From contig JADFWT010000001.1 of assembly GCA_015233785.1 (NCBI GenBank), forward strand, positions 27,752 to 91,751: 64,000 nucleotides of DNA, read 5' to 3'. Made by a program: the position numbers and the translations under genes. The notes under the pieces were generated by a model, which searched no databases, was not told the DNA's origin, and saw only the letters and a program-made list of their open reading frames with translations. This document shows positions 1 to 52,167 of this stretch, piece after piece (positions within the stretch are counted from its first letter, which is position 1; the number at the start of each line of letters is the position of its first letter). The DNA is from Magnetococcales bacterium. Lineage in GTDB: Bacteria > Pseudomonadota > Magnetococcia > Magnetococcales > JADFWT01.

Positions 1-1634
1 GTCGACGCTGCGGGCTTCCAACTCCCCTGGCGGGTAGGCACCGTGGGGGATTTCGTCACGCGGGCTGGATCTGGAGCCGGTGGCAAGCTCTTCCACGAAA
101 CCGGCGGGCCGGGAGGCTGTTTAGGCATTGGTGCCACGCCGGGAACCGGAGAGATGGGGCCCGTCGTGGCCGTGGTGAGATCGGAAACCCCTTGAGGTGT
201 GGCCGCCATGGGCAGCGGTTGCCCCTTCTGCTGATCCAACGGCACAAAAATCGGCTGATTTTGGAAGCCCAGATAGGGCGCATAGGCCCGTGCATCCGGC
301 GCAACCCCACCGCTGTACTTGGGATGGTTCTGACGCATCAACACCTTAAAGACCGGATCGGCCAGGGAGAGACGCCCTTTGGCCTTCAGCAGTTGATACT
401 GGGCCAGAAGAATCCGATAACGCCCGTTGACCAACGCCTCCTGGGCGGTGAAGAGCTGGTCCTGCGCCCCCAATAGATCAATGGAGCTGCGGGTGCCGAC
501 TTGAAACTCACGATTCACCCCCTGCATCGCCTCACGGGCCGCCCGCTCAGAATAGGCCAGGGCGCTTTGGGCCGCCATGGCGCTTTGCAGATCCAACACC
601 GCCTGCTGCACCTCCCGCACCACCTGTTTGCGCAGCCGCTCCACGGTAGAGCGCTTCTCATCCCGCCCCCAAACCGCTTGCCGGACTTTTGACGCTGTAC
701 GGCCTCCTTGGTAAAGAGGTACCGACAACGAAAGCCCTACAGTGGCCGCATCACTGGGACTGGTGGAGCTGGAGGCGGTCCAGGTGCGACCAGCACTGGA
801 GCTGAGCGAGAGGGTCGGTAGATGACCCGCCTTCTGCACATCCACATTGGAGATAGCGCTCTCCAGACGCAGTTGCGCCGCATGCAGATCCGGGCGCTTT
901 AACCCCTTCTCAGGGGGCGACAGCATCACCTGTTGAATCAACCCCTTCGGTAGCGGCGGCAAGCTCAGATGAAGCGGCGGCGGGGCGCCCACCAGCTCCA
1001 GAAAGGCCGCCTCATGGATACGCACACTGTTTTCAGCATGGATCAGGGCGGCCCGTGTGGAGGCGAGTCGTGCTTCCGCCTGACGCATATCGGTTTGGGT
1101 CAACTCCCCCACTGTAAAACGGGTGCGGGTGGCGGCGGCGTGCTGCTCGGTAACCTGTAGATTTTTTCGCGCCCAATGGGCCATCTCACGGCTTTTCAGT
1201 AGATTATTAGTCTGCTGGGCCACTTGAAAAAAGACCGACTGAATGGCACTCATCAAATCTTGTTCCGCCGCCGTTGGCAACAGGTGAGAGGCGCTGAGTT
1301 TCTCGTAAACACCCATATCAAACAGCGTGTTGGAAAGTGACATCTTCACAGCTGTGGGTTGAGCGTCGCTATCTCCCCCGTCCCACTTGGAAGCCGTATA
1401 GCTGGCAGTAGAGTCCAGCGTGACGGTGGGCAGTAACCCGGCACGGGTCTGAATAATCCCCTCTTCGGCCCCTTTATAGCGTGCCCATGACTCACGCACC
1501 TGCTCATTATGGTTGAGAGCCATGTGCAACGCGCTAAAAAAACCCTGGTGAGGGCCGCTCAAGGCGGGTGTCGGCCACAAAAACAGCATGGCCAATAGAC
1601 ACCAAAAACGACGCAACCATTGTGGACTCATCAT
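1..1634 (-). CDS. TolC-family outer-membrane efflux / type I secretion protein (C-terminal end runs off the window)
   Basis: Manual minus-strand translation from ATGATG at 1634 stays open to position 1. It is absent from the ORF track because no stop lies in the window. The N-terminus is signal-like (MMSPQWLRRFWCLLAMLFLWPTPALS). Typical outer-membrane-efflux repeats follow (ALHMALNHNEQVRESWARYKGAEEGIIQTRAGLLPTVTLDSTASY ... GTRSSIDLLGAQDQLFTAQEALVNGRYRILLAQYQLLKAKGRL). The gene is divergent from an ABC/HlyD pair. Confidence 0.8.
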   Translation of the reverse strand, partial: MMSPQWLRRFWCLLAMLFLWPTPALSGPHQGFFSALHMALNHNEQVRESWARYKGAEEGIIQTRAGLLPTVTLDSTASYTASKWDGGDSDAQPTAVKMSLSNTLFDMGVYEKLSASHLLPTAAEQDLMSAIQSVFFQVAQQTNNLLKSREMAHWARKNLQVTEQHAAATRTRFTVGELTQTDMRQAEARLASTRAALIHAENSVRIHEAAFLELVGAPPPLHLSLPPLPKGLIQQVMLSPPEKGLKRPDLHAAQLRLESAISNVDVQKAGHLPTLSLSSSAGRTWTASSSTSPSDAATVGLSLSVPLYQGGRTASKVRQAVWGRDEKRSTVERLRKQVVREVQQAVLDLQSAMAAQSALAYSERAAREAMQGVNREFQVGTRSSIDLLGAQDQLFTAQEALVNGRYRILLAQYQLLKAKGRLSLADPVFKVLMRQNHPKYSGGVAPDARAYAPYLGFQNQPIFVPLDQQKGQPLPMAATPQGVSDLTTATTGPISPVPGVAPMPKQPPGPPVSWKSLPPAPDPARVTKSPTVPTRQGSWKPAAS

Positions 1635-2079
1635 GGCTTGGACCCATGGCACCGCTGGACCGGCGCACTTCTATTATCGACTTTGTATTTCAATATGTTG
1701 AGCAAACAATACGCCTTACTCAACCCCTATACGAGGTGCTGGACCCACCTCATATATCTCTTCATATCCCTTTCTATGGAAGCAAGTTACGGGCCGATTA
1801 TGTCAAATACCACCCCCGGCCCTGAACCCCCATCAAAGCATCGCGTTCCACTACTATAATGAGGATAAACATCTAATATAACGATGCCAATTAACCCACG
1901 ATTGTTCGTATAGCGCCCTTATCCACATCATATATTCGAAGATATATGGCTGCTTTTCGAATATCAGCAACAATTCGATTCATAAGATCGATCAATCAAC
2001 CGATAAAGTTGGATAACGCCGTGGATTCTTCGAACCATAGTGAGCGTATAACACCAACGGAGAGCGAGTCTTAACGGAT

Positions 2080-4503
2080 ATGCAATCGGGTCTCAAATGT
2101 TTGGCGCTGGTGGGTCGCCACCACGGCCTTGAGATTGGTGTCGAACGGCTTCGCCATGACTACCGCGTGGGGGAGTCCGACGAACCGGACCAGACGCTGA
2201 TGACACGCATGGCCAGTGAGCATGGCCTGAAGGCGCGTCTTGTGACGTTTACCTGGCCAAAGATCCAGACCTTGGGCAAGGCCTTTCCGGTGGTGGCCCC
2301 GCTCAACAACGGCCACTATGTGATTCTTACCGGCTTCAAGAGCGCCCCTGCCGACGGTCAGGGGGAACCCACCGTCATGGTGCTGAATCCCATGCATCCC
2401 GACCAGGGCGTACAGCAGGTGGGGCAGCACGCGTTCAGTAAGCTCTGGAGTGGTGCGCTTCTGCTTTTGAAGCGGGCCTATGAACTGACCGATCTGGAGC
2501 AGCCCTTCTCCAGCTCCTGGGTGCTGGGGGCCTATCTGCGCCAAAAGGGGCTGATGGCCATGCTGGTACTCATCGCCTTTGTGCTGAATCTGTTTGCAGT
2601 GGTTCCGGCGGTGTTTATGATCCTGGTGCTGGATAAGGTGGTCAACTATCAGGCCACCGACACCCTGTACGTGATCTCCATTGGCGTCATTATCGCCTAT
2701 ATTTTCAATGCCATACTTGGGTACCTGCGGGATTACACCATCCTGTTCACCACCAGCCGCCTGGAGGCGCGGCTCAATGTGGATGCCTTTAACCGCATGA
2801 TGAATCTCCCTCTGGAGTTTTTTCAAAAACGGGGCCTGAGCGGCGTCATCAAAACCATGCAGCAGACCTCTACCCTGCGGCAGGTGATCAGTGGTCGCTT
2901 TATCGGGGCTGCCCTGGACTCCACGGCACTGTTGATATTTGTACCGATTCTCTACTTTTACAGTCCGCTGCTATCGTTGATTGTCATCGGCTTTTCAGCG
3001 TTGATCTCCCTGAATGTAATTCTCACCGCCCGGATGCAGAAGAGCCGCTTGCGCCAAGCTATTGAGGCCGATAACCGCAAACAGTCCATCATGATGAACT
3101 CGGTGAGCGGCATCGAAACCATCAAGTCCCTGGCCATTGAACCGGAGCAAAAAAGAAGCTGGGAAGAGGCGGTATTTCAACACATCAGCGCCAACTTTCA
3201 ACTGGGCAAGATCAACGCCCTCTCCAGCCAGATCGGTTCGGCGCTCCAGTCGCTGATGACCGTGGCCGTGATCGTGGTGGGCGTTAACCTGGTCTTTGCC
3301 GGAGAGCTGAGCGCCGGCGTTATTATCGGCATCTCCATGCTGGCGGGTCGGGTCACCGGGCCGCTGGTGCAGTTGGTGACGCTGGAGACCGACCTGGAGA
3401 AGACCAACACCGCCATCCAATCACTGGGCTCCATCCTAAACACCAAAGGAGAGACCGGTCAGGGTCGGCTGACGGTGGAGTTTCTCGGCGGCGTACAGTT
3501 TCGCAACGTCACCCTGGCCTACCCGGATGGCACCATCGCTCTGGACAACCTCAGCTTCACTCTGAAACCGCGCCAGCACGTGGCCATTGTCGGGCGACAA
3601 GGGGCCGGAAAAACCAGCATCGCCCGCCTGCTGCAAAAGATGCTTCAAGTGCAGTCCGGCTCGGTCAATATTGATGCCCAGGATGTGCGCACCATGGATC
3701 CGAACAAGCTGCGCTACAACGTGGCCATGGTGAATGAAAGCACCATTTTGTTTGATGAAACCATCCGGGAGAACATCATCAAGCCTTTCCCGGAGGCGGA
3801 CATGGCCCGCGTAGAGTGGGCCGCCAAAACGGTGGGATTGCATGATGATGTGCTGGCCATGCCGCTCTGTTATGAGACGGTTCTAGTGGATGGCGGGGCC
3901 AATCTGCCGGAGGTGCAACGTAAAAAAATCGCCTTGGCCCGCGCCCTGATTCGCAACCCGAAAATTCTCATTCTGGATGAAATTTTCTCACGACTGGATG
4001 TGGATGGCGGTCTGGCGTTGAAGGCACGCCTTGAGAAGATCGGCAGTGGGCGCACATTGATTCTGCTCTCGGCCCACGTAGCACCCATTCTTAATACGCC
4101 GTTGATCATGGTGATGGAGAAGGGGCGCATCACCGAGTGGGGCAACCATGGGCAGTTGATGCAGCGTGGGCGACTCTACGCCGATCTCTACCATAAGGAG
4201 AGTATGCTCTGGGGTGGCATGCCAGCCACACAACCGGCCCAAAAACAGCGCAACAGGACTCAGCAACCGGCCCAGCCGCCACAGCAGGCCACAGCTCAAC
4301 CCCCTTCTGCCCCAAGCCGGAAGCGTGCGGCCCAACTTCAAACCGCAGAGGGCAACACCCAAGAGAAGAAGACCCAAGAGAAAGTGACCCAACAGAATCG
4401 ACTACAACAGGCCCTGAAGCATCTCCAGACCAAGCAGACGCCCAGTCAGGCCAGCCCGCCGCCGCCTCCAGGACGCCAGGAGCTCCAGCATGGCGACGCC
4501 TGA
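2080..4503 (+). CDS. Type I secretion ABC exporter (short C39-like N-terminal domain, 6-TM domain, NBD, Gln/Pro-rich tail)
   Basis: 807-aa ORF with an in-frame TGA at 2041-2043 upstream. The N-terminus resembles a C39 peptidase-like domain (QSGLKCLALVGRHHGLE ... NGHYVILTGF). Hydrophobic TM segments follow. NBD motifs are Walker A GRQGAGKTS, signature-like LPEVQRKKIALARAL, Walker B ILILDE and an H-loop LLSAH. The stop overlaps the next gene by 14 nt. Confidence 0.85.
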   Translation: MQSGLKCLALVGRHHGLEIGVERLRHDYRVGESDEPDQTLMTRMASEHGLKARLVTFTWPKIQTLGKAFPVVAPLNNGHYVILTGFKSAPADGQGEPTVMVLNPMHPDQGVQQVGQHAFSKLWSGALLLLKRAYELTDLEQPFSSSWVLGAYLRQKGLMAMLVLIAFVLNLFAVVPAVFMILVLDKVVNYQATDTLYVISIGVIIAYIFNAILGYLRDYTILFTTSRLEARLNVDAFNRMMNLPLEFFQKRGLSGVIKTMQQTSTLRQVISGRFIGAALDSTALLIFVPILYFYSPLLSLIVIGFSALISLNVILTARMQKSRLRQAIEADNRKQSIMMNSVSGIETIKSLAIEPEQKRSWEEAVFQHISANFQLGKINALSSQIGSALQSLMTVAVIVVGVNLVFAGELSAGVIIGISMLAGRVTGPLVQLVTLETDLEKTNTAIQSLGSILNTKGETGQGRLTVEFLGGVQFRNVTLAYPDGTIALDNLSFTLKPRQHVAIVGRQGAGKTSIARLLQKMLQVQSGSVNIDAQDVRTMDPNKLRYNVAMVNESTILFDETIRENIIKPFPEADMARVEWAAKTVGLHDDVLAMPLCYETVLVDGGANLPEVQRKKIALARALIRNPKILILDEIFSRLDVDGGLALKARLEKIGSGRTLILLSAHVAPILNTPLIMVMEKGRITEWGNHGQLMQRGRLYADLYHKESMLWGGMPATQPAQKQRNRTQQPAQPPQQATAQPPSAPSRKRAAQLQTAEGNTQEKKTQEKVTQQNRLQQALKHLQTKQTPSQASPPPPPGRQELQHGDA

Positions 4504-6373
4504 GACCAGACCACCTCAGACCCAAGAAGCTCAGGCCCGGCAGGCTCAGGCGTCAGCCCCCATCGTTGCCCAGCGACGATCAGCTCCCAATGCCGCCGGA
4601 CAGCCCTCACCACCCCCCCACCGAGAACATACGCTGGCCCCCGGTCAGTTTGTCTTCGAGGAGGGGGAGATCGGCGATTATGCCTATGTGCTGGTCTCCG
4701 GCTCGGTGGAGATCTGCAAGCTGGGCGGCAGCGAATACATTACCCTGAAAAAGCTGGAGCCGGGGGCGCTGTTTGGCGAAATGGCGCTTCTGGACAAGAC
4801 ACCACGCAGCGCATCGGCCCGCGTTACCACGGCCTCGGTGGTGCGCGAGATTGACGAGCAGGCTCTTAAATCTCACATCCGCCAATCCCCTGCGGTGGCT
4901 ATGGACATGATGCACCGTCTGGCCAGCTATGTTCGGGACTCCAACAAGAGCCTTGGCGGGTCACTCTTTAACGGCCGCAATGGAGATCAAAGCGCCCCCC
5001 TACCGCCCCCTTCCGACCTGGAAGAGAACAAACGGCACAAGAGCCAGGCTGAAAGAGAGCTTGAAGATCTGCTATTGGAGTTTCAATCCCCACGTGAGGC
5101 GCTGGAGAGACGACGCTACCCCATGGCACTGATCTACACCTTTGGGGCCATTCTCTTCATGATTCTCAGCTTTACCCTCTGGGCGTCGTTGTCGGTGATT
5201 GATACCACTGTCTCGGCCCGTGGACGGCTCACCACGACCGTACCCACCATTCCGGTACAGGCCACCGATCACGCCATGGTCAAGGAGATTCTGGTCCAAG
5301 AAGGGGTGCGGGTGGCCAAAGGGGAGCCGATGGTGATTCTGGACGAGACTTTTGCCGTGGCCGATCTGGCTCAGGCAGAGGTCGGCTTCCGGCAACTCAC
5401 CGCAAAAATCCAACGCCTCAGCGCCGAGATGAACCGTGAAAATTTGCAGAGCGCCGCCAACATCGACAGTGAGATTGAGCGCAAGGTGTTTCGCAATCGC
5501 TTGCAGGAGTATCACGCCCGCATTGCCGCCTTTGATCTTGATCTGGTCAATCTGGAGCAGCAGCTGACCACCAGCGAAAACAATGCCCGCCTTAACTGGG
5601 AGCAGCTCTCCATTCAGGCACAAATTGCCCAGGCGCGGCAGCAGCTCTTTGATGAGAAAGTGGGCTCTCAGCTGAATCTACTTCAGGCCCGCAACAGCTA
5701 TCTCAGCAGCCTGAAGAGTTACCACGCCCATCTGGATACCGCCCACCAACTCACCAGCCGGATGGAGAGCATCCGCGCCAATCGTATGGCCTTTATCAGC
5801 GACTGGTTCTCTCAGATTGGCCAGCAGCTCTCCGAATCGCTCAAACAGCGGGATGCTCAAAAAGAGGGACTGGTTAAACTGAATCGGCGCATGAAGAATA
5901 TTCGCATTCTGGCCCCTGCCGATGGGGTGGTGATGGCGCTGGAGAAGACTCTGTTTGTGGGGGCTATCGTCAGCAAGGGCAACACCATTCTCTCCTTGGT
6001 GCCGAGTAATGTCCCTCTTACAGCCGAGCTGGATATCGATCCCCGTGATATCGGCAATCTGATGATGGGGGCGAGTGTCTCCATCAAGCTGGACGCGTTG
6101 CCCTTCCAGAAGCATGGCGAAATGCGCGGCGAGGTCACCTTTATCTCCGAAGACACCGTGGCGGAATCCACCGATGGCACGCCGGGCACCTTCTATCGGG
6201 CCAGAGCCACCATCATAGAGAATAAACTGGAGAAGCTGCCGCCTAACTTCCGACTGGTGCCGGGCATGCTTTTTACCGGGGATATTCTGGCCGGAAGAAG
6301 GCGCTTGATCACCTACTTTATCTATCCGGTGGTGCGCACCATAAACACCAGCTTCACCGAGCCGGGGCAGTGA
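4490..6373 (+). CDS. HlyD-family type I secretion membrane fusion protein with N-terminal cyclic-nucleotide-binding domain
   Basis: 627-aa ORF. Residues ~50-165 look like a CAP/Crp-type cNMP-binding domain (FVFEEGEIGDYAYVLVSGSVEI ... FGEMALLDKTPRSASARV). A single TM follows (MALIYTFGAILFMILSFTLWASL). The remainder is a typical HlyD region (VSARGRLTT ... coiled coil ... lipoyl/beta-barrel part ending YFIYPV). Confidence 0.85.
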   Translation: MATPETRPPQTQEAQARQAQASAPIVAQRRSAPNAAGQPSPPPHREHTLAPGQFVFEEGEIGDYAYVLVSGSVEICKLGGSEYITLKKLEPGALFGEMALLDKTPRSASARVTTASVVREIDEQALKSHIRQSPAVAMDMMHRLASYVRDSNKSLGGSLFNGRNGDQSAPLPPPSDLEENKRHKSQAERELEDLLLEFQSPREALERRRYPMALIYTFGAILFMILSFTLWASLSVIDTTVSARGRLTTTVPTIPVQATDHAMVKEILVQEGVRVAKGEPMVILDETFAVADLAQAEVGFRQLTAKIQRLSAEMNRENLQSAANIDSEIERKVFRNRLQEYHARIAAFDLDLVNLEQQLTTSENNARLNWEQLSIQAQIAQARQQLFDEKVGSQLNLLQARNSYLSSLKSYHAHLDTAHQLTSRMESIRANRMAFISDWFSQIGQQLSESLKQRDAQKEGLVKLNRRMKNIRILAPADGVVMALEKTLFVGAIVSKGNTILSLVPSNVPLTAELDIDPRDIGNLMMGASVSIKLDALPFQKHGEMRGEVTFISEDTVAESTDGTPGTFYRARATIIENKLEKLPPNFRLVPGMLFTGDILAGRRRLITYFIYPVVRTINTSFTEPGQ

Positions 6374-6494: not shown

Positions 6495-6523
6495 AAAAAA
6501 AGGCCTCACCCGAAGGCAAGACC
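6495..6523 (-). terminator. Rho-independent terminator downstream of the acidic-protein gene
   Basis: The minus-strand RNA reads GGUCUUGCC-UUCG-GGUGAGGCC. That is a 9-bp stem including G-U pairs with a UUCG tetraloop, followed by UUUUUUU. It sits 77 nt after the stop at 6600. Confidence 0.6.
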
Positions 6524-6599
6524 CTTTGATTTGAAGAGACGCCAGAATCCCCCCGCAGGCAAGACACCAGAAAGATATCGGCCATAGGCGAGACGTCTA

Positions 6600-7595
6600 T
6601 TATACCACTTCGGCATCCGCCCCCATATCTGGAGGCACACCAGCTCCTGCCATATCGGCCACATCCGGCCCGGTTGCTCCGCCGGGAGACTCCGGCATCG
6701 GCGCGGTATCGGTGGCGGTCTGATCCATGGCGTTGGTCATGGCATCGTCTCCCATATCGGGCATGGGCGGGGGAACCGTTCCAGTACCAGCTGAATCGGG
6801 GGTCTCTCCCATGGGTACATCGGTCGGGGGCGGAGCGCTGTCCGTCGTACTGGCCGTATCGGCACCGTAGCTGGGAATCATTCCAGTACCGGTTCCCGCC
6901 GTGTCAGCTGGCATGTAGCCATCTTCACCCGCTCCTCCCTCTGCTCCCGGTACCGGCGGGACATAGCCGCCGTCAGTGGGATCGTTGGGTTCGCCGCCGT
7001 AGGGACCGGTAGGGGGCGCGCCACCAGCGCCATCCTGTTGAGGAAGATAGTCGTCATTGGGATCGTCGCCAAACGTGCCCGTGGGAGGCGTCATGCCACC
7101 CGGTCCATAACCACCCCCTCCTCCACCATCCCCATCTTGTTGGGGAGGATAATCACCGTTTGGGCCATCACCAAAAGTGCCCGGAGGCGGCACGGTTCCG
7201 CCATAGGGCTCGGCGGCTTCACCTTCTTCATGGTGGCCGTGGTGGCCGTGGTCACCACCATCGTCGTCGTGGTCATCATCATCATCATCATCGTGGGGAG
7301 GAGGCTGATGACCATAACTGGCTGGATCCACATAGCCATCCACCATACCGGCCGAGTCCGCATAGCCAGTCGTACCGGCCGCTGGATCCACATAATCGGC
7401 CTCCATATCGGTAGCGGAGACGGGACTATTTGCAGCCTCACCGTAACTGTTGGGATCTACATAACCGGTGGGTCCTGTATCCGCCGCATCGGTGGGCATC
7501 GGGGCCATATTGCTATCCGTGCCTGGAACCGGGGCAGCTGCGGGATTGGTGGTTGCGGTGTCGGTGGCTGTCGCTGCCGTCGTGTCTTCTGCCAT
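6600..7595 (-). CDS. Hyper-acidic low-complexity (Asp/Gly/Pro/Thr/Tyr-rich) protein with poly-Asp/His tract; function unknown
   Basis: 331-aa ORF, the longest frame in this low-complexity region. A GGGAGG Shine-Dalgarno lies 8 nt upstream of the ATG. Internal repeats include GYVDP x3 and GTFGD(G/D)PN(G/D)DY(P/L)PQQDG x2. There is a DDDDDDDHDDDGGDHGHHGHH tract. Confidence 0.7.
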   Translation of the reverse strand: MAEDTTAATATDTATTNPAAAPVPGTDSNMAPMPTDAADTGPTGYVDPNSYGEAANSPVSATDMEADYVDPAAGTTGYADSAGMVDGYVDPASYGHQPPPHDDDDDDDHDDDGGDHGHHGHHEEGEAAEPYGGTVPPPGTFGDGPNGDYPPQQDGDGGGGGGYGPGGMTPPTGTFGDDPNDDYLPQQDGAGGAPPTGPYGGEPNDPTDGGYVPPVPGAEGGAGEDGYMPADTAGTGTGMIPSYGADTASTTDSAPPPTDVPMGETPDSAGTGTVPPPMPDMGDDAMTNAMDQTATDTAPMPESPGGATGPDVADMAGAGVPPDMGADAEVV

Positions 7596-8010: not shown

Positions 8011-8478
8011 TCAGCCGGTGGCGACCTGAGGTAGATCCTCCGGGGTCTCCAACGGATACGCCTGACGTTGCCACTCCACCACACCGCCAATCAGTTCGCA
8101 CGCCTGCAAGCCCCCATCCAGAAAGTGATCCAACGCTATGGCCGTACGCGGCCCTGAACGACAGATCAGTACGTAGCGCACCTCCGGGTCAAAGAGCGAA
8201 GGATCGAACTTGGCCAAAAAATCCTTGGAAAAAGCGCCGGTATCCTGCCGGTTGGCCAGATTATGCTCGCAAGGAAAACAGAGACTGGATGGAATCAACC
8301 CCTCTTGCTGCTCCACCTCGGTGCGCAGGTCCAGCGGCGTCATCTGGGTGAGACCGGCATCCATTAGCTGCTTGAGCTGCTTGACGGAGATCATCTCGTT
8401 GAAAAGAACCTTCTCCATGATCTCTTCAGGATTCTCTTGGGGCTGATTATCCATCATCAATACGCCATCTTTTTTCAA
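8011..8478 (-). CDS. Rhodanese-domain sulfurtransferase-like protein
   Basis: 155-aa ORF. It has a rhodanese active-site loop CRSGPR (VLICRSGPRTAIALDHF) and a C-terminal GGVVEWQRQAYP. The start codon is uncertain because several in-frame Met codons exist. Confidence 0.75.
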   Translation of the reverse strand: MKKDGVLMMDNQPQENPEEIMEKVLFNEMISVKQLKQLMDAGLTQMTPLDLRTEVEQQEGLIPSSLCFPCEHNLANRQDTGAFSKDFLAKFDPSLFDPEVRYVLICRSGPRTAIALDHFLDGGLQACELIGGVVEWQRQAYPLETPEDLPQVATG

Positions 8479-8526: not shown

Positions 8527-8949
8527 CTAATCAACGCCCTTCTCCTGGAAAAAGGCCGAATACCTGACATCGTGATCGTTGATGTGCTCCAGTAACCACT
8601 TGGCGAGAAACGCCTTCACTTCGGTAAAACGACCCGCCTGCCGAGACTCAATCTGCTCCCGAAGCCGGTGCAGAGTATCAATCAGATCTGCATGCTGTTT
8701 AAGGTGCTCTTCCAACTGAGGATAATCGTACGCACGCATCAGCTCCTCTTCCGCCTTGAAGTGAATCTGCGTGTATTTGTCGAACCGCTTAAAGATGGAG
8801 TCCAGTTGGTCCCACTCATCCTCCTCCGCTTCACGCTCGGCAAAACGGTCAGAGAGCCTGTTGAACTCCTGGACATAGAATAGAAGCCGTTGATGATCTT
8901 TATTAAAACGCTCAACACCAACATCGGCAACAAACAGATTCGACATCAC
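8527..8949 (-). CDS. Bacteriohemerythrin (hemerythrin-like metal-binding protein)
   Basis: 140-aa ORF with the spaced His/Glu/Asp ligand pattern of hemerythrins (DHQRLL ... HFKAEEELM ... YPQLEEHLKQH ... WLLEHINDHDVRY). Confidence 0.85.
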   Translation of the reverse strand: MMSNLFVADVGVERFNKDHQRLLFYVQEFNRLSDRFAEREAEEDEWDQLDSIFKRFDKYTQIHFKAEEELMRAYDYPQLEEHLKQHADLIDTLHRLREQIESRQAGRFTEVKAFLAKWLLEHINDHDVRYSAFFQEKGVD

Positions 8950-19642: not shown

Positions 19643-19717
19643 GACACGCTCCCCCTGCTGAAGTGATCGAAAAAGAGATATTAACACGCATGACGACGCG
19701 GTTGAATGCGACAATTA

Positions 19718-22087
19718 TCAATTTGTCGTCAACGCCTTAAAAACCTTCTCCGCACCAGGTGGAATGCTGGTGAGATGCAGCTGCAACGTCCCCGCCTCTT
19801 CATCCTGGGCCATCACCTTGCCGTAGAGCTGATCGGAGATAGAGAGACCATCGGCATCAAACAGCTCCAGTTGCAAATTGGTCAGACGCCGCGCCTTGAG
19901 ACGGGTTGCAATCTCCAAGAGCTTACCGTCCATGGCGCTGATACGACCGGCATGACGCGCCTTATCACTCCGTTTGCCCTCCAGAACCGCCATCATCACC
20001 TCCGGGCCATTCTCCAGAAACTTTAACTCAGGAGGCCTCGGCTCCGGCAACTGAATGCCGTAAAGGCCTCGAATACCGCCAATCAGGTAGATGGGAACCG
20101 GCTCGGGAACCCCCTTTAAGGAGACCCGCCATTCATCATCGATGCGGGCCAGATTGTTGCACCCCTTCAGGGTGGTCTCAGAGATCAACACCTGCCCACC
20201 AATGGTTTGCGACTCCACCCGTGCCGCCAGATTGATGGTCGCCCCCACGACGCCGTACTTGGCCCGCAGATCCGAACCGATATTTCCAGCTACCACCGAT
20301 CCGCTGTTGATGCCAATCCCCATGGCCGCTTCGGGAAAGCCACGAGCACCGAACTTGGCATTCACCTCCGGCATCGCTTTCTGCATCTCCAGGGCGCAGG
20401 CCACCGCCCGCTGGGGATCATCCTCATGGGTAACCGGCGCGCCAAACAGCGCCAGAATGCCATCGCCAAGGAACTCAATGATGGTGCCGCTATATTTCAG
20501 GATGATCTCGGTCATGCGCTCCAGATAGATGTTGAGCATGGAGATCACCTCTTCCGGCGGCAAGCGCTCGCTAATGGCGGTGAAGCCCCGCAGGTCGGAC
20601 ATCATCACCGTCACCTCCTTCTGCTCACCCCCCAGACGCAACCCCTCGGGTCGATCCAGAATCGATGCCACCACCTCATCGGACATATAGCGCCCAAAGG
20701 TCTTGCGAATAAACAGGTTGGCCCGATTCAGCCCCTCATTGAGGTGCTTCTGCTCAAACAACATATGCTCCAACTCTTTGTTGAGCTGACCCTTCTCCTC
20801 CGTGGCCTGCTCGGCACTCTCCAAAGCCTTCTGCAACTCCTCTTGCGTGTGTTTGCGCTCCACCGCCACCTGCAACACAAACGCCAGTTGGTCGATCACC
20901 TCACGCGCCTCATCGGTGATCTGTATCGCCCCTTCCAGATGGAGAAAAAAGAGCGCAAAAACAGTATCACGCCCCGGTGAGAAGAGCGGAATCAACAGTC
21001 GTGCGCCATCCAGATCTTCGGGAAACTGCTCCTCATAGCCATGCTGGTGGTGCACCTTCCAACTACTGCGATCCTGAGAGAAGTAACGCATGAACTGGAG
21101 GGGGAGCATCACCACTTCGCCCGCATAGCCGCTCTCGGCACTCAGACGAAGCCCCTGACCATTGTCGCGAAGGGTGTAGAACTCCATGCCGGCGGCGGGA
21201 AGCATTCGGCGAGTAATCTCCAGAAGCGCTTCCACAATCTGGTCAAACTCCCGGTGGGCAACCATCGCCTCTTTAATATCCCGCAACATATCGTTGAGCG
21301 TGGTCAGCCGTCGCACATCGGTACTATCTGCCGCTTTCAGATAGAGCCCGCAATCCAATTTTTTCAGGCGGCTGAAAATCTCGGGGACCAGGTGACCGGG
21401 AATAATGGAGCCGTGCTGGGGGGCTATCATGCCGAGCTCCAGCTTCTCCAGCTTCAAAAGCCCATTGAGCAGCACCTCTCGGCTAGGCATGTAGTGCTCG
21501 TGAAATGGGCGCATCGCCTCAAAATAGTCGGCATCCCGAGCCACCAATGTCCAGTCGTCGGTAAAGCCGCCAAACAGATCGCTGGAGAATAGAATGCGAC
21601 TCTCCTCATCATAGGTGCAGAACGCCCCAGGAAAGTGCAAATAGGGGGTGAAGACAAATTTCAGCCGACGACTGCCAAGATCAAGATGCCAGCCGTGATC
21701 CTGCTCGATACACTTTAATGGCATTTTGAGATCATAATGCTTAAGCAGTACGTTGGCCCGCCAATGGCTGAGAAGATAGGCATCATCCCGCGTCACCATG
21801 GCGTCAATGGTGGGCATGATGGCTGTGATGTCGGGATCCTGATGCTGGCAGAGAAAATATCGAATATTACTGAATTCGGTAATCTTCTTGATCTTTTCCA
21901 GGGTGTGATCAAAGGTGAGCTTGGAGCCGGGATCAAACAGAACCGATTGATCGCCGTTCTCAATCAGATAGGCGTGGCACTGAAAAGGATCCCCAGGAAG
22001 ATAGTGGCCAACCCACCAGGTGCGATCTGCAATCTCAATGGGATGATCGGCGGAGGCGTATTGAATGTGATCTAAAGGGTCGCTCAT
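19718..22087 (-). CDS. Class III nucleotidyl cyclase with N-terminal metallo-beta-lactamase/flavodiiron-like domain and GAF-like linker (cyclase 1)
   Basis: The ORF is open to 22171, but I prefer ATG 22087 (MSDPLDHIQY). The N-terminus reads WWVGHYL...CHAYLIENGDQSVLFDPG...LCQHQDPDITA...HFPGAF...SSDLFGG...APQHGSII. The catalytic domain reads VTVMMSDLRGFT...IIEFLGDGILALFGAP...KYGVVGATINLAARVES. Confidence 0.85.
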   Translation of the reverse strand: MSDPLDHIQYASADHPIEIADRTWWVGHYLPGDPFQCHAYLIENGDQSVLFDPGSKLTFDHTLEKIKKITEFSNIRYFLCQHQDPDITAIMPTIDAMVTRDDAYLLSHWRANVLLKHYDLKMPLKCIEQDHGWHLDLGSRRLKFVFTPYLHFPGAFCTYDEESRILFSSDLFGGFTDDWTLVARDADYFEAMRPFHEHYMPSREVLLNGLLKLEKLELGMIAPQHGSIIPGHLVPEIFSRLKKLDCGLYLKAADSTDVRRLTTLNDMLRDIKEAMVAHREFDQIVEALLEITRRMLPAAGMEFYTLRDNGQGLRLSAESGYAGEVVMLPLQFMRYFSQDRSSWKVHHQHGYEEQFPEDLDGARLLIPLFSPGRDTVFALFFLHLEGAIQITDEAREVIDQLAFVLQVAVERKHTQEELQKALESAEQATEEKGQLNKELEHMLFEQKHLNEGLNRANLFIRKTFGRYMSDEVVASILDRPEGLRLGGEQKEVTVMMSDLRGFTAISERLPPEEVISMLNIYLERMTEIILKYSGTIIEFLGDGILALFGAPVTHEDDPQRAVACALEMQKAMPEVNAKFGARGFPEAAMGIGINSGSVVAGNIGSDLRAKYGVVGATINLAARVESQTIGGQVLISETTLKGCNNLARIDDEWRVSLKGVPEPVPIYLIGGIRGLYGIQLPEPRPPELKFLENGPEVMMAVLEGKRSDKARHAGRISAMDGKLLEIATRLKARRLTNLQLELFDADGLSISDQLYGKVMAQDEEAGTLQLHLTSIPPGAEKVFKALTTN

Positions 22088-22424
22088 GACTAACGAACAG
22101 CTCCTGATTGCACAGTAAAGCTCTACCGGCACGACCACACTTTGCGCCGACGGACTTGCCTCCCCCCACAATCTGGCTGCATCAATTCATACCATGAAGC
22201 GAAGCCTTCCCCTCTTTCGGCCCCAGCATAACTCCTGCATGATTATGAACCATTTATTATTATTGTCGGATCATACAGAACATGAGATAAAACGACCACT
22301 TTTTTGTGACGTACCTTCCGGTTTCATCCATTGCAGACCCTGATGGTTCAGGAGAGACTACCCTCTACTTTCAGTTATGGAGCGACCTCCTGACAACCAC
22401 CCTTCAAGTCATTGATCCTCTACC

Positions 22425-28759: not shown

Positions 28760-30388
28760 ATGCCAAATTTTGGCCCTATTACATCAAAAACCATTTTTGA
28801 ACATCTATGCGCCTTTCTGGATGGCCTTCCCACGCCATCCACCCTGCTTCTCAATTTTACAGATAAGCGGCGCGGCGGTCTTCTCCATCGTCGGCTATTC
28901 AATGGTAGTACGGCCCGCATTGAGTTCTCTCTGACCATCCTTACCGCCATTTTTGCACTTTCCTTTGGGATCATCCTCTACCTTCAGGGGATTAAAATTG
29001 AACAACTCAGCGCCATGCTATTTTCCCGTGGTCTTGAGAATCTTGGACAAGAGGCGCTGGCAAGAGCCAATTTTTTGAATCATGCCGCCTGGGTGCTGTT
29101 CTTATCGATCCCTGGCATTGGATTTATCGGCGGATTGAAGCGCAAATTGTTTACGTTGCGCCTTATGTATATTGTTGACGTGATGAAAAAGATCACCGAT
29201 GGCGATCACACGCAACGCATCCACATCAGCCCCGGCAATCAAAGCATTCTCTATACCCATATCGGTCGGATGATCAACACCCTGACCGACACCCTCAACA
29301 AAGAGGAAGCTGGACGGGAACAGGCCAATGCCAAACTGCTGAAATCCCTGGACCAAGAGCGGGCCACTACCCAACGCCTGGACAAGGCCAACCGCGTCAT
29401 TCGTCACACCTTCGGGCGCTATATGTCTCCAGATGTCATGGAGGCTATTCTGGATCGACCCGACGGCCTGAAGCTGGGCGGGAAAAAAATGACCGTTACC
29501 GTCATGATGACCGATCTGCGTGGCTTCACCTCCATCAGTGACCGCATGGATTCGGAACAACTGCTTTCCATGCTCAACATGTACCTGGAGGTGATGACCA
29601 AAATCATCCTGGACCATAAGGGCACGATCATCGAATTTCTGGGGGATGGCATTCTCATGCTGTTTGGGGCGCCTTTCAATCGCCCAGACGACCCCCAACG
29701 CGCCGTGCGTTGCGCGCTGAAAATGCAAAAATCCATGGAACAGGTCAACCGCAGAAACCGCAAACACGGCTTTCCCGAATTGGCCATGGGGGTGGGCATC
29801 ACTACTGGAGATGTGGTGGCCGGTAATATTGGTTCCAATATACGCAGCAAATATGGCGTGGTGGGTACAAGTATCAATTTGGCAGCCCGGATTGAGTCCC
29901 TCACGGTAGGAGGACAGATCCTGATCTCAATGAATACCTACCTCGCATGTGAAAATCTACTCCGCATTGGCCAGCAGTTCGACACCACCCCAAAGGGATT
30001 TAAAAAACCCATCGCCATCTATGAGGTGACCGGAATCGGCGGCACGTATGATCTCTATCTGGATGTCACAAAAAACGAGCATCTCGCCCCCGTTTCCCCA
30101 GCCAAGATGGTCAGGTTCAGCCTATTGAGGAACAAATACCCTGACGCCATCTGCCATGATGGCTGGCTCACCAGCCTGACCCTGCCCAATGCCGAAATCC
30201 GCACCATCACCATGCTGGATGAGCGCAGTGATATTCAGATACAGCTTTTTGACAATCGCGGGGTCTTTGTCAGCGATCAACTCTACGGAAAAGTCACAGC
30301 GGTGGATAGAAAGAAGAAGATCCTTGAGGTCACCTTCACCTCGGTTCACCCCGATGCACGCGCCTATATAGAGAGTGATCGTTTTTGA
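28760..30388 (+). CDS. Membrane-anchored HAMP-like class III nucleotidyl cyclase (cyclase 2)
   Basis: 542-aa ORF with GGAGAG 5 nt upstream of the ATG. There are two hydrophobic helices (FSLTILTAIFALSFGIILYL, AAWVLFLSIPGIGFIGGL) and a HAMP-like linker. The catalytic domain reads VTVMMTDLRGFT...IIEFLGDGILMLFGAP...KYGVVGTSINLAARIES. Confidence 0.85.
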   Translation: MPNFGPITSKTIFEHLCAFLDGLPTPSTLLLNFTDKRRGGLLHRRLFNGSTARIEFSLTILTAIFALSFGIILYLQGIKIEQLSAMLFSRGLENLGQEALARANFLNHAAWVLFLSIPGIGFIGGLKRKLFTLRLMYIVDVMKKITDGDHTQRIHISPGNQSILYTHIGRMINTLTDTLNKEEAGREQANAKLLKSLDQERATTQRLDKANRVIRHTFGRYMSPDVMEAILDRPDGLKLGGKKMTVTVMMTDLRGFTSISDRMDSEQLLSMLNMYLEVMTKIILDHKGTIIEFLGDGILMLFGAPFNRPDDPQRAVRCALKMQKSMEQVNRRNRKHGFPELAMGVGITTGDVVAGNIGSNIRSKYGVVGTSINLAARIESLTVGGQILISMNTYLACENLLRIGQQFDTTPKGFKKPIAIYEVTGIGGTYDLYLDVTKNEHLAPVSPAKMVRFSLLRNKYPDAICHDGWLTSLTLPNAEIRTITMLDERSDIQIQLFDNRGVFVSDQLYGKVTAVDRKKKILEVTFTSVHPDARAYIESDRF

Positions 30389-32528: not shown

Positions 32529-33158
32529 TTACTTCATAAAGAAGGAGGCCGCCTTCCAGAGCGAAAGCACAGCCAGAATAAGAAAGAAGATACCGCTGAC
32601 TCTGTGCAAGGTCTCTTCAGGAATCTTACTGAGGAGCTTGCTACCCGCCACAATGCCCAGTGCCGAGATGAAGATCAAGGCTACTGTACCACCAATCCAA
32701 ACAGAAACGGGGTCATAGCTACCAGAGAGTGCCGCAACGGCAATCTGGGTCTTGTCGCCAAACTCCGCCACAAAGATCAGAATGAAAGTGGTGATCAGAA
32801 CACTACGACCACTCTTCTCGGTGATCTCTTCGTCATCTTCCTCTTCATCATCGCCCCGCAACATCTGAATGCCGAACACGCCAAACAGAAGACCAACAGC
32901 AAGCGCCACCACCCACTCCGGCACCCAGGCCGCCACCGAAGCTCCAAAAGCCACAGCCAGGACATTGAGGATGATAAACGCCAGTGAAACCCCCGCCAGC
33001 ACAGGTAAACCGCGATGACGGGCCGCCAGTGTCATACAGACCAACTGGCTCTTGTCGCCAATCTCAGCCAAAGAGATCAACGCGAAGGTGGTCCCAATCA
33101 CAGAAACATTGGAGAGACCGCTTTGTGTACCAGAGAGAAAAAGATCAAGATCCATCAT
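32529..33158 (-). CDS. UPF0016 (TMEM165/GDT1-family) putative Mn2+/Ca2+ transporter
   Basis: There are two E-x-G-D-K-(S/T) motifs (LAEIGDKSQL, VAEFGDKTQIA) in a polytopic hydrophobic protein. The ORF is open to 33239. I prefer ATGATG at 33158 (MMDLDLF), because the upstream part overlaps the riboswitch expression platform and AAAGG lies just upstream. Confidence 0.85.
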   Translation of the reverse strand: MMDLDLFLSGTQSGLSNVSVIGTTFALISLAEIGDKSQLVCMTLAARHRGLPVLAGVSLAFIILNVLAVAFGASVAAWVPEWVVALAVGLLFGVFGIQMLRGDDEEEDDEEITEKSGRSVLITTFILIFVAEFGDKTQIAVAALSGSYDPVSVWIGGTVALIFISALGIVAGSKLLSKIPEETLHRVSGIFFLILAVLSLWKAASFFMK

Positions 33159-33240
33159 GAAACCTTTACAGAGGGCCGGGCTTAACAAACACGATAGGCG
33201 TAACCGCACGCCCAGCCCTCTTCGCTGAGACGCGATCACG

Positions 33241-33354: not shown

Positions 33355-33361
33355 AAGAGAC

Positions 33362-37074: not shown

Positions 37075-39195
37075 TCAGGTAAAGTCCCGCATTTTCTCTT
37101 CCACACGCTGTGGTACCGATGTGAAGTAGACCGTCAAAACCCCCTCACAGACGTCTAAAACTTTACCAAAAAGCTGATCGGAGACCTGTTCGCCACGCTT
37201 GTTGAACAGCTCCACCTTCAGGTTGGTCATACGATCCACATTAAGGGGCGTCGTGATTTCAGTGAGCGGATAGTTAATGGCCGTAATACGACCATCATAA
37301 ATTTCTTCAGCCGCATACTTCCCATCCATGATCATCAGCCGCACCTGATGAGCATAGTGGAGAGGATGCACAACAATCTGGTCCATCTCGGGAAGACGGA
37401 TCTGATAGACCCCCTCGATACCACCCACCTGGAAAACTGAAATCGGCTTGGAAACCCCCTTGGGAGCCACGCGCCACTCGTCATCAATACGCAGAATAGG
37501 GCCACAAGCATTACGGGTGCTCTCAGAGATCAAGATCTGTCCGCCCACGGTCAGAGACTCAATGCGTGCCGTCAGGTTGATGGCATTGCCCACCACGCCA
37601 TACTTACTGCGTTTATCGGAGCCGATGTTGCCGGCAATCACCAGGCCGGTGTTAATCCCTCCGCCCATCACCATTTGCGGATAACCCAGTTCACGATTTT
37701 TCTCGTTTACCTTGGGCATCGCCAACTGCATGGCCAACGCGCAGGCCACCGCCCGCTGAGCATCATCCTCCCTGGGAATCGGAGCACCAAACAGCACCAG
37801 TATACCATCACCCAAAAACTCAATGATGGTGCCGTTGTACTGATGGATAATCTCGGTCATCGCCTCCAGATAGAGGTTCAGCATGGTAATAACATCTTCC
37901 GGAGCCATGCGTTCACTAACCGCCGTAAAGCCGCGCAGGTCGGTCATCATCACCGTCACCTCACGCTGCTCGCCCCCCAACTCCAATCCATCCGGGGTGT
38001 CCAGAATGGTCTTGACCACCTCGTCGGACATATAGCGACCAAAGGTCTTTCGGATAAAGTGGTTGGCGCGGTCCAGCTTTTCGTTGGCCTCTTTCTCATC
38101 CGCCAACGCCTTGCGTACCCGATCATCCATCTCATGACGCTGGATAATCACCGACAGAATCGAGGCGATGGATCTTAGAAAATCTTCATTCTCCTGAGAG
38201 AGCTGCTGACCCACATTCAAGTAGAGATTCATCACACCCAATACCCGCTCATCCGCCAAAATGGGAATGCAGCAGTGTCGGTGGGGAGTCTCCATCTCCA
38301 GGGATTTGATATCATGCCGTGGGTCGTCAAAGTCGGCGTGAATAATCTCACGTTCCAGAGCAGCCCGACCACAGATGCAGCGTCCAAACGGCACCCGGCC
38401 GCAGGTATCAAACAGATGCCGTACATCTTCCGAATAGGCACGCAGCACCAGATCTCCTGTATCTGGATCGGTAATAAATATCGCCCCTTTAGGCTGAACC
38501 TGAAGCCAAGGTAGATAAAAAAGCATGATCAATACTTGGTCCAACTGATCCTGGAGCGGAACCGGCTCCATAGCGGAGTGGAGAAGCATCTGGATCAGTT
38601 GAGAGCCATCCATGGACTGGGTAAGCTCTTTTTCGGTTTTACTCCGCTGAATCATTTCCGCCAGGGTGCCGGCGGCTGTACTGAGAAACACCTCCTCATC
38701 AGAATCGCGCACATGACCCTCAGGAAGATAGAGCGTCAAAACCCCTTGAAGCTCCATATCTTTGGAGAGAATCGGCACACAATAGTGACCATGCGGATGA
38801 ATGCCTTCCACCTGAGTTTCATGGGAATCGTGAGACGATACAAACACCAACTCCTTGAGCTCCGCCGCTTTTCCGCAGAGACATTTTCCCACTGGTATCT
38901 CGGAGCAGGTTTTCACCATATCCGGCAGAAAGTTACGGTGTGCGGTCAGAGTGAGGTTGTTACGTTTCTTATCAAAAAGAAAAATGGCCGCTCGATCATC
39001 CATCAGGGACCAAGAAACACTGAGAATGATGCCCAATGCAATTTCAAACTGCTCCTGAAGAGAGGCGTGGGCTTCAATGCTGGTCTTGAGAAGGGCATTA
39101 ATAGCACGCTGCGACTCATGGTCACGCATCTTGCGCGCCTCTCGCTTTTTTGCCGCAGATCCAGGCCAATTAATTAGATTCATGGAAAATCCCAT
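37075..39195 (-). CDS. GAF-GAF class III nucleotidyl cyclase (cyclase 3)
   Basis: 706-aa ORF. It has two GAF-like domains, each with a C-x7-C-x-C-G-(K/R)-A-A motif and a His/Cys cluster. The catalytic domain reads VTVMMTDLRGFT...IIEFLGDGILVLFGAP...KYGVVGNAINLTARIES. Confidence 0.85.
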   Translation of the reverse strand: MGFSMNLINWPGSAAKKREARKMRDHESQRAINALLKTSIEAHASLQEQFEIALGIILSVSWSLMDDRAAIFLFDKKRNNLTLTAHRNFLPDMVKTCSEIPVGKCLCGKAAELKELVFVSSHDSHETQVEGIHPHGHYCVPILSKDMELQGVLTLYLPEGHVRDSDEEVFLSTAAGTLAEMIQRSKTEKELTQSMDGSQLIQMLLHSAMEPVPLQDQLDQVLIMLFYLPWLQVQPKGAIFITDPDTGDLVLRAYSEDVRHLFDTCGRVPFGRCICGRAALEREIIHADFDDPRHDIKSLEMETPHRHCCIPILADERVLGVMNLYLNVGQQLSQENEDFLRSIASILSVIIQRHEMDDRVRKALADEKEANEKLDRANHFIRKTFGRYMSDEVVKTILDTPDGLELGGEQREVTVMMTDLRGFTAVSERMAPEDVITMLNLYLEAMTEIIHQYNGTIIEFLGDGILVLFGAPIPREDDAQRAVACALAMQLAMPKVNEKNRELGYPQMVMGGGINTGLVIAGNIGSDKRSKYGVVGNAINLTARIESLTVGGQILISESTRNACGPILRIDDEWRVAPKGVSKPISVFQVGGIEGVYQIRLPEMDQIVVHPLHYAHQVRLMIMDGKYAAEEIYDGRITAINYPLTEITTPLNVDRMTNLKVELFNKRGEQVSDQLFGKVLDVCEGVLTVYFTSVPQRVEEKMRDFT

Positions 39196-52163: not shown

Positions 52164-52167
52164 CCGG

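Follow-up and report, generated by a model that had tools for sequence, protein, structure and literature searches.

A cyclic-nucleotide-binding domain on the periplasmic adaptor of a type I secretion system in Magnetococcales and marine Alphaproteobacteria: a candidate switch of protein export

Introduction

The closest described relatives of the secretion system studied here are HlyB-HlyD-TolC of E. coli and LipBCD, type I secretion systems (T1SS) with a tripartite set of components and an ATP-binding cassette (ABC) transporter that bears a C39-like domain (CLD) without the catalytic Cys. In their adaptors HlyD and LipC, which are membrane fusion proteins (MFPs), a cytoplasmic N-terminus and one transmembrane helix are combined with an alpha-hairpin, a lipoyl domain and a beta-barrel. 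To recognise its substrate and to assemble the complex, a T1SS adaptor requires its sizeable cytoplasmic region (PMC8277102), and residues R34EKDE38 in the cytoplasmic N-terminus of HlyD contact HlyB and are needed for TolC recruitment (bioRxiv 10.1101/2025.05.27.656419). Both studies bear out the premise of a first-pass annotation of the DNA analysed here, which had placed the trigger of TolC recruitment in the cytoplasmic N-terminus of HlyD. We here analyse a window of 64,000 nucleotides, by which we mean the whole stretch, from a Magnetococcales bacterium (assembly GCA_015233785.1, contig JADFWT010000001.1, positions 27,752 to 91,751 of the forward strand). The window encodes a T1SS adaptor that carries a cyclic-nucleotide-binding (CNB) domain at its cytoplasmic N-terminus, and the first-pass annotation had proposed it as a candidate for secretion that is gated by cyclic nucleotides (cNMPs).

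The control of T1SS is usually described via transcription and substrate availability. In the LapA system of Pseudomonas, cyclic di-GMP (c-di-GMP) acts via LapD and LapG to control a periplasmic protease and hence the retention of the adhesin. To our knowledge, this is the only well-known control of a T1SS by a second messenger, and it governs whether the substrate is retained rather than the export machine as such.

CNB domains have been described on other export machines. HetC of Nostoc PCC 7120, a peptidase-containing ABC transporter (PCAT), has a cNMP-fold domain that it needs in order to function in vivo (PMC10986499). Furthermore, the bacteriocin/NHLP cassettes of groups IV and V in cyanobacteria encode CNB domains, annotated as CAP_ED, near HlyD and ABC genes (PMC4558948). 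The first-pass annotation named cNMP domains on some bacteriocin-type ABC exporters and no characterised cNMP-MFP fusion. The literature agrees, as it yields HetC (PMC10986499) and standalone proteins (PMC4558948); an MFP adaptor with a cNMP-binding domain is not described in the papers that our search covered, which left subscription journals and domain-architecture databases outside its scope.

Results

The adaptor combines a CNB domain with a HlyD-type body

The adaptor gene has an AGGAG Shine-Dalgarno sequence 6 nt 5' of its ATG, and the first 14 nt of the overlap with the upstream ABC gene reach from this start to the ABC stop, so that the two genes may be translationally coupled (Table 1). 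The protein is 100% identical to MBF0587508.1 at NCBI (exact look-up), which comes from a metagenome-assembled genome (MAG) of Magnetococcales and bears only the public name 'HlyD family type I secretion periplasmic adaptor subunit'. With Pfam, cNMP_binding (PF00027) was detected at residues 47-132 (E=4.4e-20, 71.9 bits with a cutoff of 27.5), and HlyD_3 and HlyD_D23 were placed C-terminal of it. With NCBIfam, TIGR01843 (type_I_hlyD) was detected at residues 216-624 with 267 bits, above the curated cutoff of 208.65. Judged from these profile scores, the adaptor is a member of both the HlyD family of T1SS adaptors and the CNB domain family. The profile search proposed in the first-pass annotation thus confirms the architecture of cNMP_binding plus HlyD and, with it, the claim of a CAP-family fold ahead of the HlyD body; the phosphate-binding cassette (PBC) quoted there is also present in canonical form. 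Only part of a further claim, that the domain lies immediately before the single transmembrane helix, holds up: the domain is cytoplasmic, and about 50 residues separate it from the helix, namely a linker of ~30 aa that varies and a juxtamembrane segment of ~20 aa that is conserved.

Table 1. Features of the window, with positions counted from its first nucleotide
Feature	Position	Strand	Basis or remark
TolC-like OEP gene, partial (3' end beyond window start)	1..1652	-	PF02321
HlyB-type T1SS ABC transporter, 807 aa	2080..4503	+	Peptidase_C39, ABC_membrane, ABC_tran (Pfam)
cNMP-binding / HlyD fusion adaptor gene, 627 aa	4490..6373	+	ATG start
Adaptor: disordered N-terminus	residues 1-45 (4490-4624)	+	AlphaFold2; Q/P/A-rich
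Adaptor: cytoplasmic CNB/CAP domain	4625..4960, residues 46-157	+	PF00027; AlphaFold2 pLDDT ~90
Adaptor: phosphate-binding cassette FGEMALLDKTPRSASA	4772..4819, residues 95-110	+	canonical G-E...R-S-A
Adaptor: disordered linker	residues ~156-190	+	AlphaFold2
Adaptor: juxtamembrane segment and transmembrane helix	5048..5191	+	AlphaFold2 helices 187-198, 201-207, 212-234
Adaptor: periplasmic MFP body	5192..6370	+	lipoyl and beta-barrel domains, long alpha-helical hairpin
Strong terminator-like hairpin	6498..6527	-	13-bp stem and T-run; between convergent MFP and cargo genes
Candidate cargo, acidic repeat protein, 331 aa	6600..7595	-	no Pfam match
Rhodanese-domain and hemerythrin-domain genes, adjacent	8011-8478, 8527-8949	-	between cargo and first TPR-Glyco_transf_41 gene
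TPR-Glyco_transf_41 genes (starts)	9082, 11355, 13508, 15653, 22425, 24709, 30453, 34704
TPR-Glyco_transf_41 genes (starts, continued)	39494, 42114(-), 50262, 54546, 56910, 58975, 60755
TPR-sulfotransferase	17744-19714	-	among TPR-Glyco_transf_41 genes
ODP (di-iron sensor) and class III cyclase	19718..22171	-	Pfam ODP, Guanylate_cyc
B12-radical SAM gene	26985-28469	-	among TPR-Glyco_transf_41 genes
Class III cyclase, no N-terminal domain assigned	28760..30388	+	Pfam Guanylate_cyc
yybP-ykoY Mn2+ riboswitch	33196-33360	-	RF00080, 61.5 bits, E=1e-13
LexA-like repressor (HTH_3 and Peptidase_S24)	33575-34261	-
GAF-GAF and class III cyclase	37075..39195	-	Pfam GAF_2, GAF, Guanylate_cyc
FkbM methyltransferase	44419-45354		among TPR-Glyco_transf_41 genes
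Receiver, GGDEF and EAL protein	45382-48075	-
TPR-only gene	51862-53904		interspersed among TPR-Glyco_transf_41 genes

An AlphaFold2 model of the adaptor, for which 41 non-redundant homologues were used as input (mean pLDDT 83), folds the CNB domain as a beta-roll (46-121) followed by helices (123-157) and has the long helices of the MFP body at residues 287-469. The transmembrane helix (212-234) is preceded by a basic RRR, which is consistent with an N-terminus on the inside. The juxtamembrane segment (residues 187-207; ERELEDLLLEFQSPREALERRR in the window) is charged and conserved, with the family consensus ..D.D.II.EFQ.P..AI..R..P, and it resembles what we take to be the corresponding segment of HlyD (REKDE-NEFLP...RRP).

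When comparing the model to solved structures with Foldseek, we found EmrA, MacA, LipC (TM-target 0.84) and HlyD (5C22, 0.73), in line with the shared HlyD/LipC layout; the top 50 matches of the full-length model were all MFP structures with no CNB structure among them. At the sequence level, phmmer aligned the adaptor to full-length HlyD (8DCK, E=4e-19) from the transmembrane helix onward only, and also detected LipC (5NEN). The difference lies in the cytoplasm, where HlyD has ~60 aa and no ligand fold, whereas the adaptor of the window has ~210 residues with a complete CNB domain. The nearest sequence relatives of this domain in the PDB are Plasmodium PKG, PKA-R, M. tuberculosis CRP and Bd1971 (E down to 5e-16). 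All of these closest solved relatives are genuine cNMP binders, and Bd1971 is a cAMP-binding EAL protein.

The secretion genes compared with described systems

As in the haemolysin and Lip systems, the locus comprises a tripartite set. The TolC-like gene, whose translation (3-1652(-)) matches the outer-membrane efflux protein family OEP (PF02321, E=6e-52), is divergent from the ABC gene. The ABC protein (MBF0587507.1 at NCBI, exact look-up) consists of a C39-like domain (2-132), a transmembrane domain (160-428) and a nucleotide-binding domain (NBD; 488-636). Its best match in NCBIfam is TIGR01846 (type_I_sec_HlyB); unlike HlyB, it stays below the cutoff of that family (468 bits vs 725). When its C39-like domain is aligned with the peptidase domain of LahT (6MPZ), a Ser takes the position of the catalytic Cys. 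None of 22 aligned partner ABCs has this Cys, and the His varies among them. We thus conclude that the transporter is HlyB-type and non-proteolytic. Transporters of this kind are associated with unprocessed cargos that bear C-terminal signals.

The same arrangement is found in the related loci, which we refer to by number. Wherever a locus extends upstream of the fusion, an ABC gene stands directly 5' of it, and an OEP gene adjoins the ABC/MFP pair in L002, L006, L007, L022, L086, L087 and L089; a TolC-like gene is adjacent in eight loci in all. With an ABC gene directly upstream and an OEP gene nearby, the adaptor stands in a T1SS context. As a side observation, residues ~712-807 of the ABC protein (4213-4500) form a low-complexity tail of ~95 aa that is rich in Q, P and A. 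This tail is missing from most relatives (712-757 aa), the ABC of L006 has 782 aa, and residues 1-45 of the adaptor are similarly rich in Q, P and A.

Compared to HetC, the locus likewise has a PF00027-type domain within a component of an ABC export machine; however, the domain sits on the MFP here and on the ABC transporter in HetC, and HetC has an active C39 domain (Cys/His) and no MFP gene nearby, whereas the ABC transporter of the window has a dead CLD. The PBC of the adaptor is canonical, and the state of the cassette in the ppGpp-binding domain of HetC is not stated in PMC10986499. The cyanobacterial cassettes resemble the locus in having CNB domains near HlyD and ABC genes, but they carry the CAP_ED domain on the ABC transporter or on a bimodular protein that stands alone, and they export GG-leader peptides through transporters of the peptidase type. 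Against TIGR03896 (cyc_nuc_ocin), the CNB domain of the window scored 30.9 bits, below the cutoff of 161.05, and it thus lies outside this family. Since the C39 peptidase is dead, we do not count the system among the PCATs or bacteriocin exporters. Of the hallmarks of RTX-type T1SS, a non-catalytic C39-like ABC transporter is found whereas a cargo with GGxGxD repeats is not; the system is thus not a classical RTX system either, because its candidate cargo (see below) lacks these repeats.

The sensor domain is conserved and the fusion is widespread

Across the family, the PBC follows the nearly invariant pattern FGEMAL[IL]D..xR[STA]A. In an alignment of the 41 non-redundant sequences, F95, G96, E97, R106 and A108 are invariant, as are E58/G59, G71, P134, A137 and R149, the latter in the C-helix. 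The motif GE-x(8-12)-R[STA]A occurs in 117/120 best homologues; of the others, two are truncated at the N-terminus and the third is an R-to-L variant. Identity to the adaptor of the window amounts to 34-66% in the CNB domain, 34-60% in the periplasmic body and 4-33% in the linker, and in distant homologues the CNB domain is better kept than the body (e.g. 55% vs 40%). An invariant cassette, a domain that is no less conserved than the body and a linker that varies form the pattern to be expected of a working ligand site rather than of a relic.

The first-pass annotation had called for a survey of how widespread the fusion is, and this survey shows that it is not a one-off. PF00027 and HlyD domains occur together in 118 of the 120 best homologues, at identities down to 32%, and the remaining two are N-terminally truncated. 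In a filter-free scan of 1.84 billion representatives with residues 44-330 of the adaptor as the query, ~40 clusters at 50% identity were covered by a single alignment that spans the CNB domain, the transmembrane helix and the start of the periplasmic part. In GTDB, with one genome per species, the fusion was found in 19 species-level genomes. The hosts include Magnetococcales, SAR116, Rhodospirillaceae, Magnetovibrio, Nisaea, uncultured marine Alphaproteobacteria and single-cell genomes labelled 'Rickettsiales'; complete Terasakiella genomes carry the fusion too (e.g. Terasakiella sp. SH-1, CP038255). The best non-fused adaptors score below all fusion proteins, which fits a single old fusion event. 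We discarded one set of apparent fusions, i.e. 'full-length' tblastn matches at 26% identity (L027-L030, L033), as these are an MFP gene and a separate downstream CNB gene.

Operon cyclases and split genes point to a link of the adaptor to cyclic-nucleotide signalling

In six alphaproteobacterial genomes (loci L002/3, L007, L008, L009, L022 and L024; in L002 at 10001-14555), hereafter the marine clade, the fusion lies in an operon with the order TolC, acidic cargo, ABC, cNMP-adaptor, a cyclase with CHASE2 and class III cyclase domains, and CNB protein(s). In all six genomes, the CHASE2 cyclase gene abuts or overlaps the adaptor gene, within 3-25 nt of its stop. Next come one or two genes for proteins of 145-155 aa that consist of a CNB domain only and keep the GE..RTA cassette intact. 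At the positions that specify the substrate, the CHASE2 cyclases bear Lys (DKYMGD) and Ser, and they are thus predicted to be of the adenylyl type. A few kb downstream, the opposite strand of the marine-clade loci encodes another T1SS, an ordinary one with an RTX protein.

A split version of the fusion exists as well. In Rhodospirillales and Methylocystaceae, the MFP (460 aa) is unfused, and a standalone CNB protein of 112-163 aa is encoded on the same strand, 400-600 nt downstream of it; in L027-L032 (~9824-12200), two ABC genes and an unfused adaptor precede the standalone CNB gene (cassette GE..RMA). Adaptor and CNB domain are thus fused in some lineages and encoded by adjacent genes in others, which argues for a functional partnership. 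The standalone CNB proteins beside an MFP, in the split loci and in the marine-clade operon, resemble the layout of CAP_ED in cyanobacteria.

Guanylyl cyclases are rare in bacteria. The window encodes three class III cyclases that are predicted to belong to this type, and their presence within 35 kb, as noted in the first-pass annotation, is upheld by Pfam (Table 1). The catalytic domain of the ODP cyclase matches Cya2 of Synechocystis (2W01) with E=7e-60 and retains Glu and Gly; IEFLGD and YGVVG, which hold this Glu-Gly pair, are present in all three cyclases and align to the same residues of 2W01. The engineered adenylyl-cyclase variant 6FHT has Lys at the position of the Glu, and it is by the E-G pair that Cya2 is distinguished as a guanylyl cyclase (PMC4215837). 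In their catalytic domains, and by prediction in their activity, the three cyclases are thus Cya2-like, whereas their sensor parts (ODP, GAF-GAF and an N-terminus without an assigned domain) differ from Cya2. We rejected these cyclases as a part of the T1SS itself because their proximity is not conserved in the other Magnetococcales (L086, L087); as a source of ligand for the adaptor, they are a possibility.

Nothing pointed to control by cNMP at the level of transcription: TGTGA-N6-TCACA with up to two mismatches yielded 18 matches compared to 24±5 expected, and we found no CRP-type sites in the divergent promoter region between the TolC and ABC genes.

An acidic protein without Lys and Arg is the candidate cargo

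The gene that converges on the adaptor gene encodes a protein with no Lys, Arg, Cys or Trp and with 59 Gly, 50 Pro and 49 Asp (18% G, 15% P and 15% D). It consists of Pro/Gly/Met-rich repeats, contains a DHGHHGHHEE patch and ends in the tail ...PPDMGADAEVV. The open reading frame (ORF) has a GGGAGG Shine-Dalgarno sequence 8 nt upstream and the best codon score among the six frames. Its exact sequence is absent from a collection of 15 billion proteins, though both of its neighbours (MFP and ABC) are present there; thus, the ORF was probably not called in the public annotation of the MAG.

At least 17 other loci encode a like protein beside the ABC gene and the cNMP-MFP gene, mostly directly upstream. 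They have in common a K+R count of 0-3, 13-32% Asp+Glu, EHH pairs, a MAE[DE] start, repeats of the DGQPPM or PPPEGDM type and tails of the form D-P-x-x-G-x-[DE]-[VI]-[VI] or DPxAGM[GA]. We screened 2463 ORFs of at least 120 aa from 86 loci for acidic proteins with K+R<=2. The screen was passed by 15 ORFs, all of them in fusion loci and 14 near the ABC/MFP pair; one of the 15, a 410-aa ORF in L020, overlaps a longer ORF on the opposite strand and may be spurious.

The protein of the window is the most divergent copy of the family. Against a hidden Markov model (HMM) built from the other C-termini, and with filters and null2 correction turned off, its C-terminal 60 aa scored 37.3 bits, which is similar to leave-one-out positives; composition-preserving shuffles (n=1000) scored 21.7±3.9 bits and reached 37.3 once. 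The N-terminus was not significant against the family HMM (67/1000 shuffles). Similar to the haemolysin system, the cargo gene is adjacent and its tail is acidic and then hydrophobic; unlike the cargo of that system, the candidate has no RTX GGxGxD repeats and consists instead of Lys/Arg-free Pro/Gly/Met/Asp repeats. The candidates of the window, L001 and L002 have no Pfam match and hence no HemolysinCabind repeats. From composition, position and tail, we infer with moderate confidence that the ORF at 6600-7595 is probably the cognate cargo.

A database search with the cargo of Terasakiella, which is probably limited by low complexity, gave eight unnamed matches, one of them with HemolysinCabind. 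As this weak relative (P0270) carries the HemolysinCabind (RTX) domain, T1SS substrates of the RTX type may share the N-terminal helical motif of some cargos. The Lys/Arg-free acidic repeat proteins form an unannotated family, with neither a Pfam match nor a name, that is widespread in marine Alphaproteobacteria (SAR116, Rhodospirillaceae) and Magnetococcales.

Other genes in the window

In the remaining window (9082-62629) lie 15 paralogous genes for TPR arrays that are fused, as the N-terminal part, to a Glyco_transf_41 domain (OGT/SPINDLY-like), among which the TPR-only, TPR-sulfotransferase, B12-radical SAM and FkbM genes of Table 1 are interspersed. Putative enzymes for the modification of proteins or glycans have thus expanded locally to a very large number. 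TPR and B12-radical SAM genes also lie beside the T1SS in the related locus L087. In L086, a gene for the magnetosome protein MamC (3684-4151(-)) is located ~3.6 kb upstream of the T1SS ABC gene and ~6 kb from the adaptor, which is probably coincidental. The yybP-ykoY riboswitch stands upstream of a gene for a GDT1/TerC-like cation transporter (32529-33239(-)), which is an ordinary arrangement. Since the window contains a receiver-GGDEF-EAL gene, c-di-GMP signalling is also encoded in the region.

Discussion

We lean slightly towards the reading that the protein is the adaptor of a dedicated T1SS, with TolC, an ABC transporter with a dead C39 domain and, most likely, an acidic Lys/Arg-free repeat protein with a C-terminal signal as its cargo, and that export through this system is licensed or blocked by cAMP or cGMP. 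Binding of cAMP or cGMP to the cytoplasmic CNB domain of the adaptor would reposition the C-helix and the linker, and the engagement of the juxtamembrane segment with the CLD or NBD of the ABC transporter, or with the cargo, would change. As an outcome, assembly or export would be licensed or blocked post-translationally. The class and identity of the ligand, the sign of the regulation, the dimerisation of the C-helix and the status of the cargo are points that we infer. The conserved fusion with its PBC, the clade with a cyclase in the operon and the split arrangement strengthen, at the level of sequence, the case for a candidate cNMP-gated secretion system. If gating holds, the system would be like LapD in that a nucleotide second messenger acts post-translationally on a T1SS substrate via an inner-membrane receptor. 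Unlike LapD, which is a separate receptor with degenerate GGDEF-EAL domains, binds c-di-GMP and does not act on the export step, the receptor of the window is contained within the adaptor.

Several observations weigh against gating by cAMP or cGMP or against the proposed cargo. The AlphaFold2 model is silent on how the CNB domain is placed relative to the ABC transporter. In HetC, the one characterised exporter with a cNMP-fold domain, cAMP did not stabilise this domain, which instead bound ppGpp with a Kd of 59 uM (PMC10986499), and a CNB fold alone is thus no proof of its ligand. The cyclases of the window are 13-31 kb away from the T1SS with unrelated genes in between, no cyclase was found within 10 kb of the system in the other Magnetococcales (L086, L087) or in L088 and L089, and the operon-linked cyclase occurs in one clade only. 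For the cargo, phmmer with the protein of the window found only itself, and N- and C-terminal HMMs of the family miss it both in default mode and with --nobias. We tie it to the family by composition, position and the order of C-terminal motifs only. Furthermore, no gene of the cargo type lies nearby in L004, L006, L010 and L088, although these loci have adequate flanks.

Could the CNB domain sense another ligand, such as ppGpp or a GTP-like or other molecule, so that the T1SS is under stringent or metabolic gating? We consider this unlikely, although HetC offers a precedent, as its cNMP-fold domain bound ppGpp with no stabilisation by cAMP or 2-oxoglutarate and as domains of the CAP family accept diverse effectors (PMC10986499). 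Most fusion loci, too, have no cyclase within 10 kb. However, the residues by which genuine cNMP binders hold ribose and cyclic phosphate (G-E...R-[ST]-A) do not vary across ~40 divergent clusters, which would be surprising if they had no role. Six genomes have an operon cyclase together with extra CNB proteins, and among solved structures the sequence is closest to PKG, PKA and CRP. The chances are poorer still that the domain is the relic of a sensor and serves as a ligand-independent module, either for docking to the CLD, the NBD or the cargo or for oligomerisation via the C-helix. CRP-type C-helices form dimers, which would suit such a module. It would also agree with the need for the cytoplasmic region of the adaptor in substrate recognition and assembly (PMC8277102) and with the pairing of HlyD protomers with HlyB dimers in cryo-EM (bioRxiv 10.1101/2025.05.27.656419). 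Yet the operon cyclase and the split CNB genes point to signalling, and the PBC Arg and Glu, which degenerate CNB domains typically lose, are invariant here.

The adaptor might also bind cNMP without any gating of export, and localise or buffer it at the site of secretion or, through competition for the ligand, signal how far the secretion system is occupied to other cNMP effectors such as the small CNB proteins. The marine-clade operon, in which a cyclase and soluble CNB proteins stand beside the adaptor, would provide for this, but the extra CNB proteins are missing from most loci, and the explanation is less parsimonious given that the CNB domain is tethered to the segment that couples ABC transporter, substrate and TolC in HlyD; we thus rate it as slightly more improbable than a structural module. 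That the fusion arose by mis-assembly or a frameshift, which joined a CRP-like gene and an HlyD gene, is a concern raised by the origin of the window from a MAG. This is refuted by the fusion in 118/120 homologues from many independent assemblies, including the complete genome of Terasakiella sp. SH-1 (CP038255), and by a continuous reading frame with a good Shine-Dalgarno sequence.

Gating by cAMP or cGMP thus remains the explanation that we favour. A broader proposal, to which we give somewhat less than an even chance, is that these loci represent an undescribed class of T1SS in which the receptor is contained in the MFP and cAMP, or possibly cGMP from Cya2-like cyclases in this Magnetococcales genome, directly licenses assembly or export, with a new family of secreted Lys/Arg-free proteins as the cargo that would be polyanionic, disordered, rich in Met, His and Pro and plausibly metal-binding outside the cell. 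CAP_ED domains on ABC exporters were known before; new, and supported as a hypothesis, is a T1SS adaptor with a conserved CNB receptor together with an unannotated family of acidic cargos.

The family lends itself to further study, as it is compact, is open to genetics of the whole circuit within a single operon, has clear predicted ligand contacts (E97 and R106) and has cultured hosts (Terasakiella spp.), and as the operon of one clade is self-contained, with a sensor cyclase, a CNB adaptor, an ABC transporter, TolC and a cargo. If the proposed gating is true, a cNMP receptor on the adaptor would be a direct post-translational switch of export and a new class of output for bacterial CNB domains, and if the ligand in Magnetococcales is cGMP, the adaptor would be another of the rare bacterial effectors of cGMP. 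Taken together, the comparison of these loci suggests that a mostly marine group of bacteria probably switches the export of acidic proteins via a second messenger.

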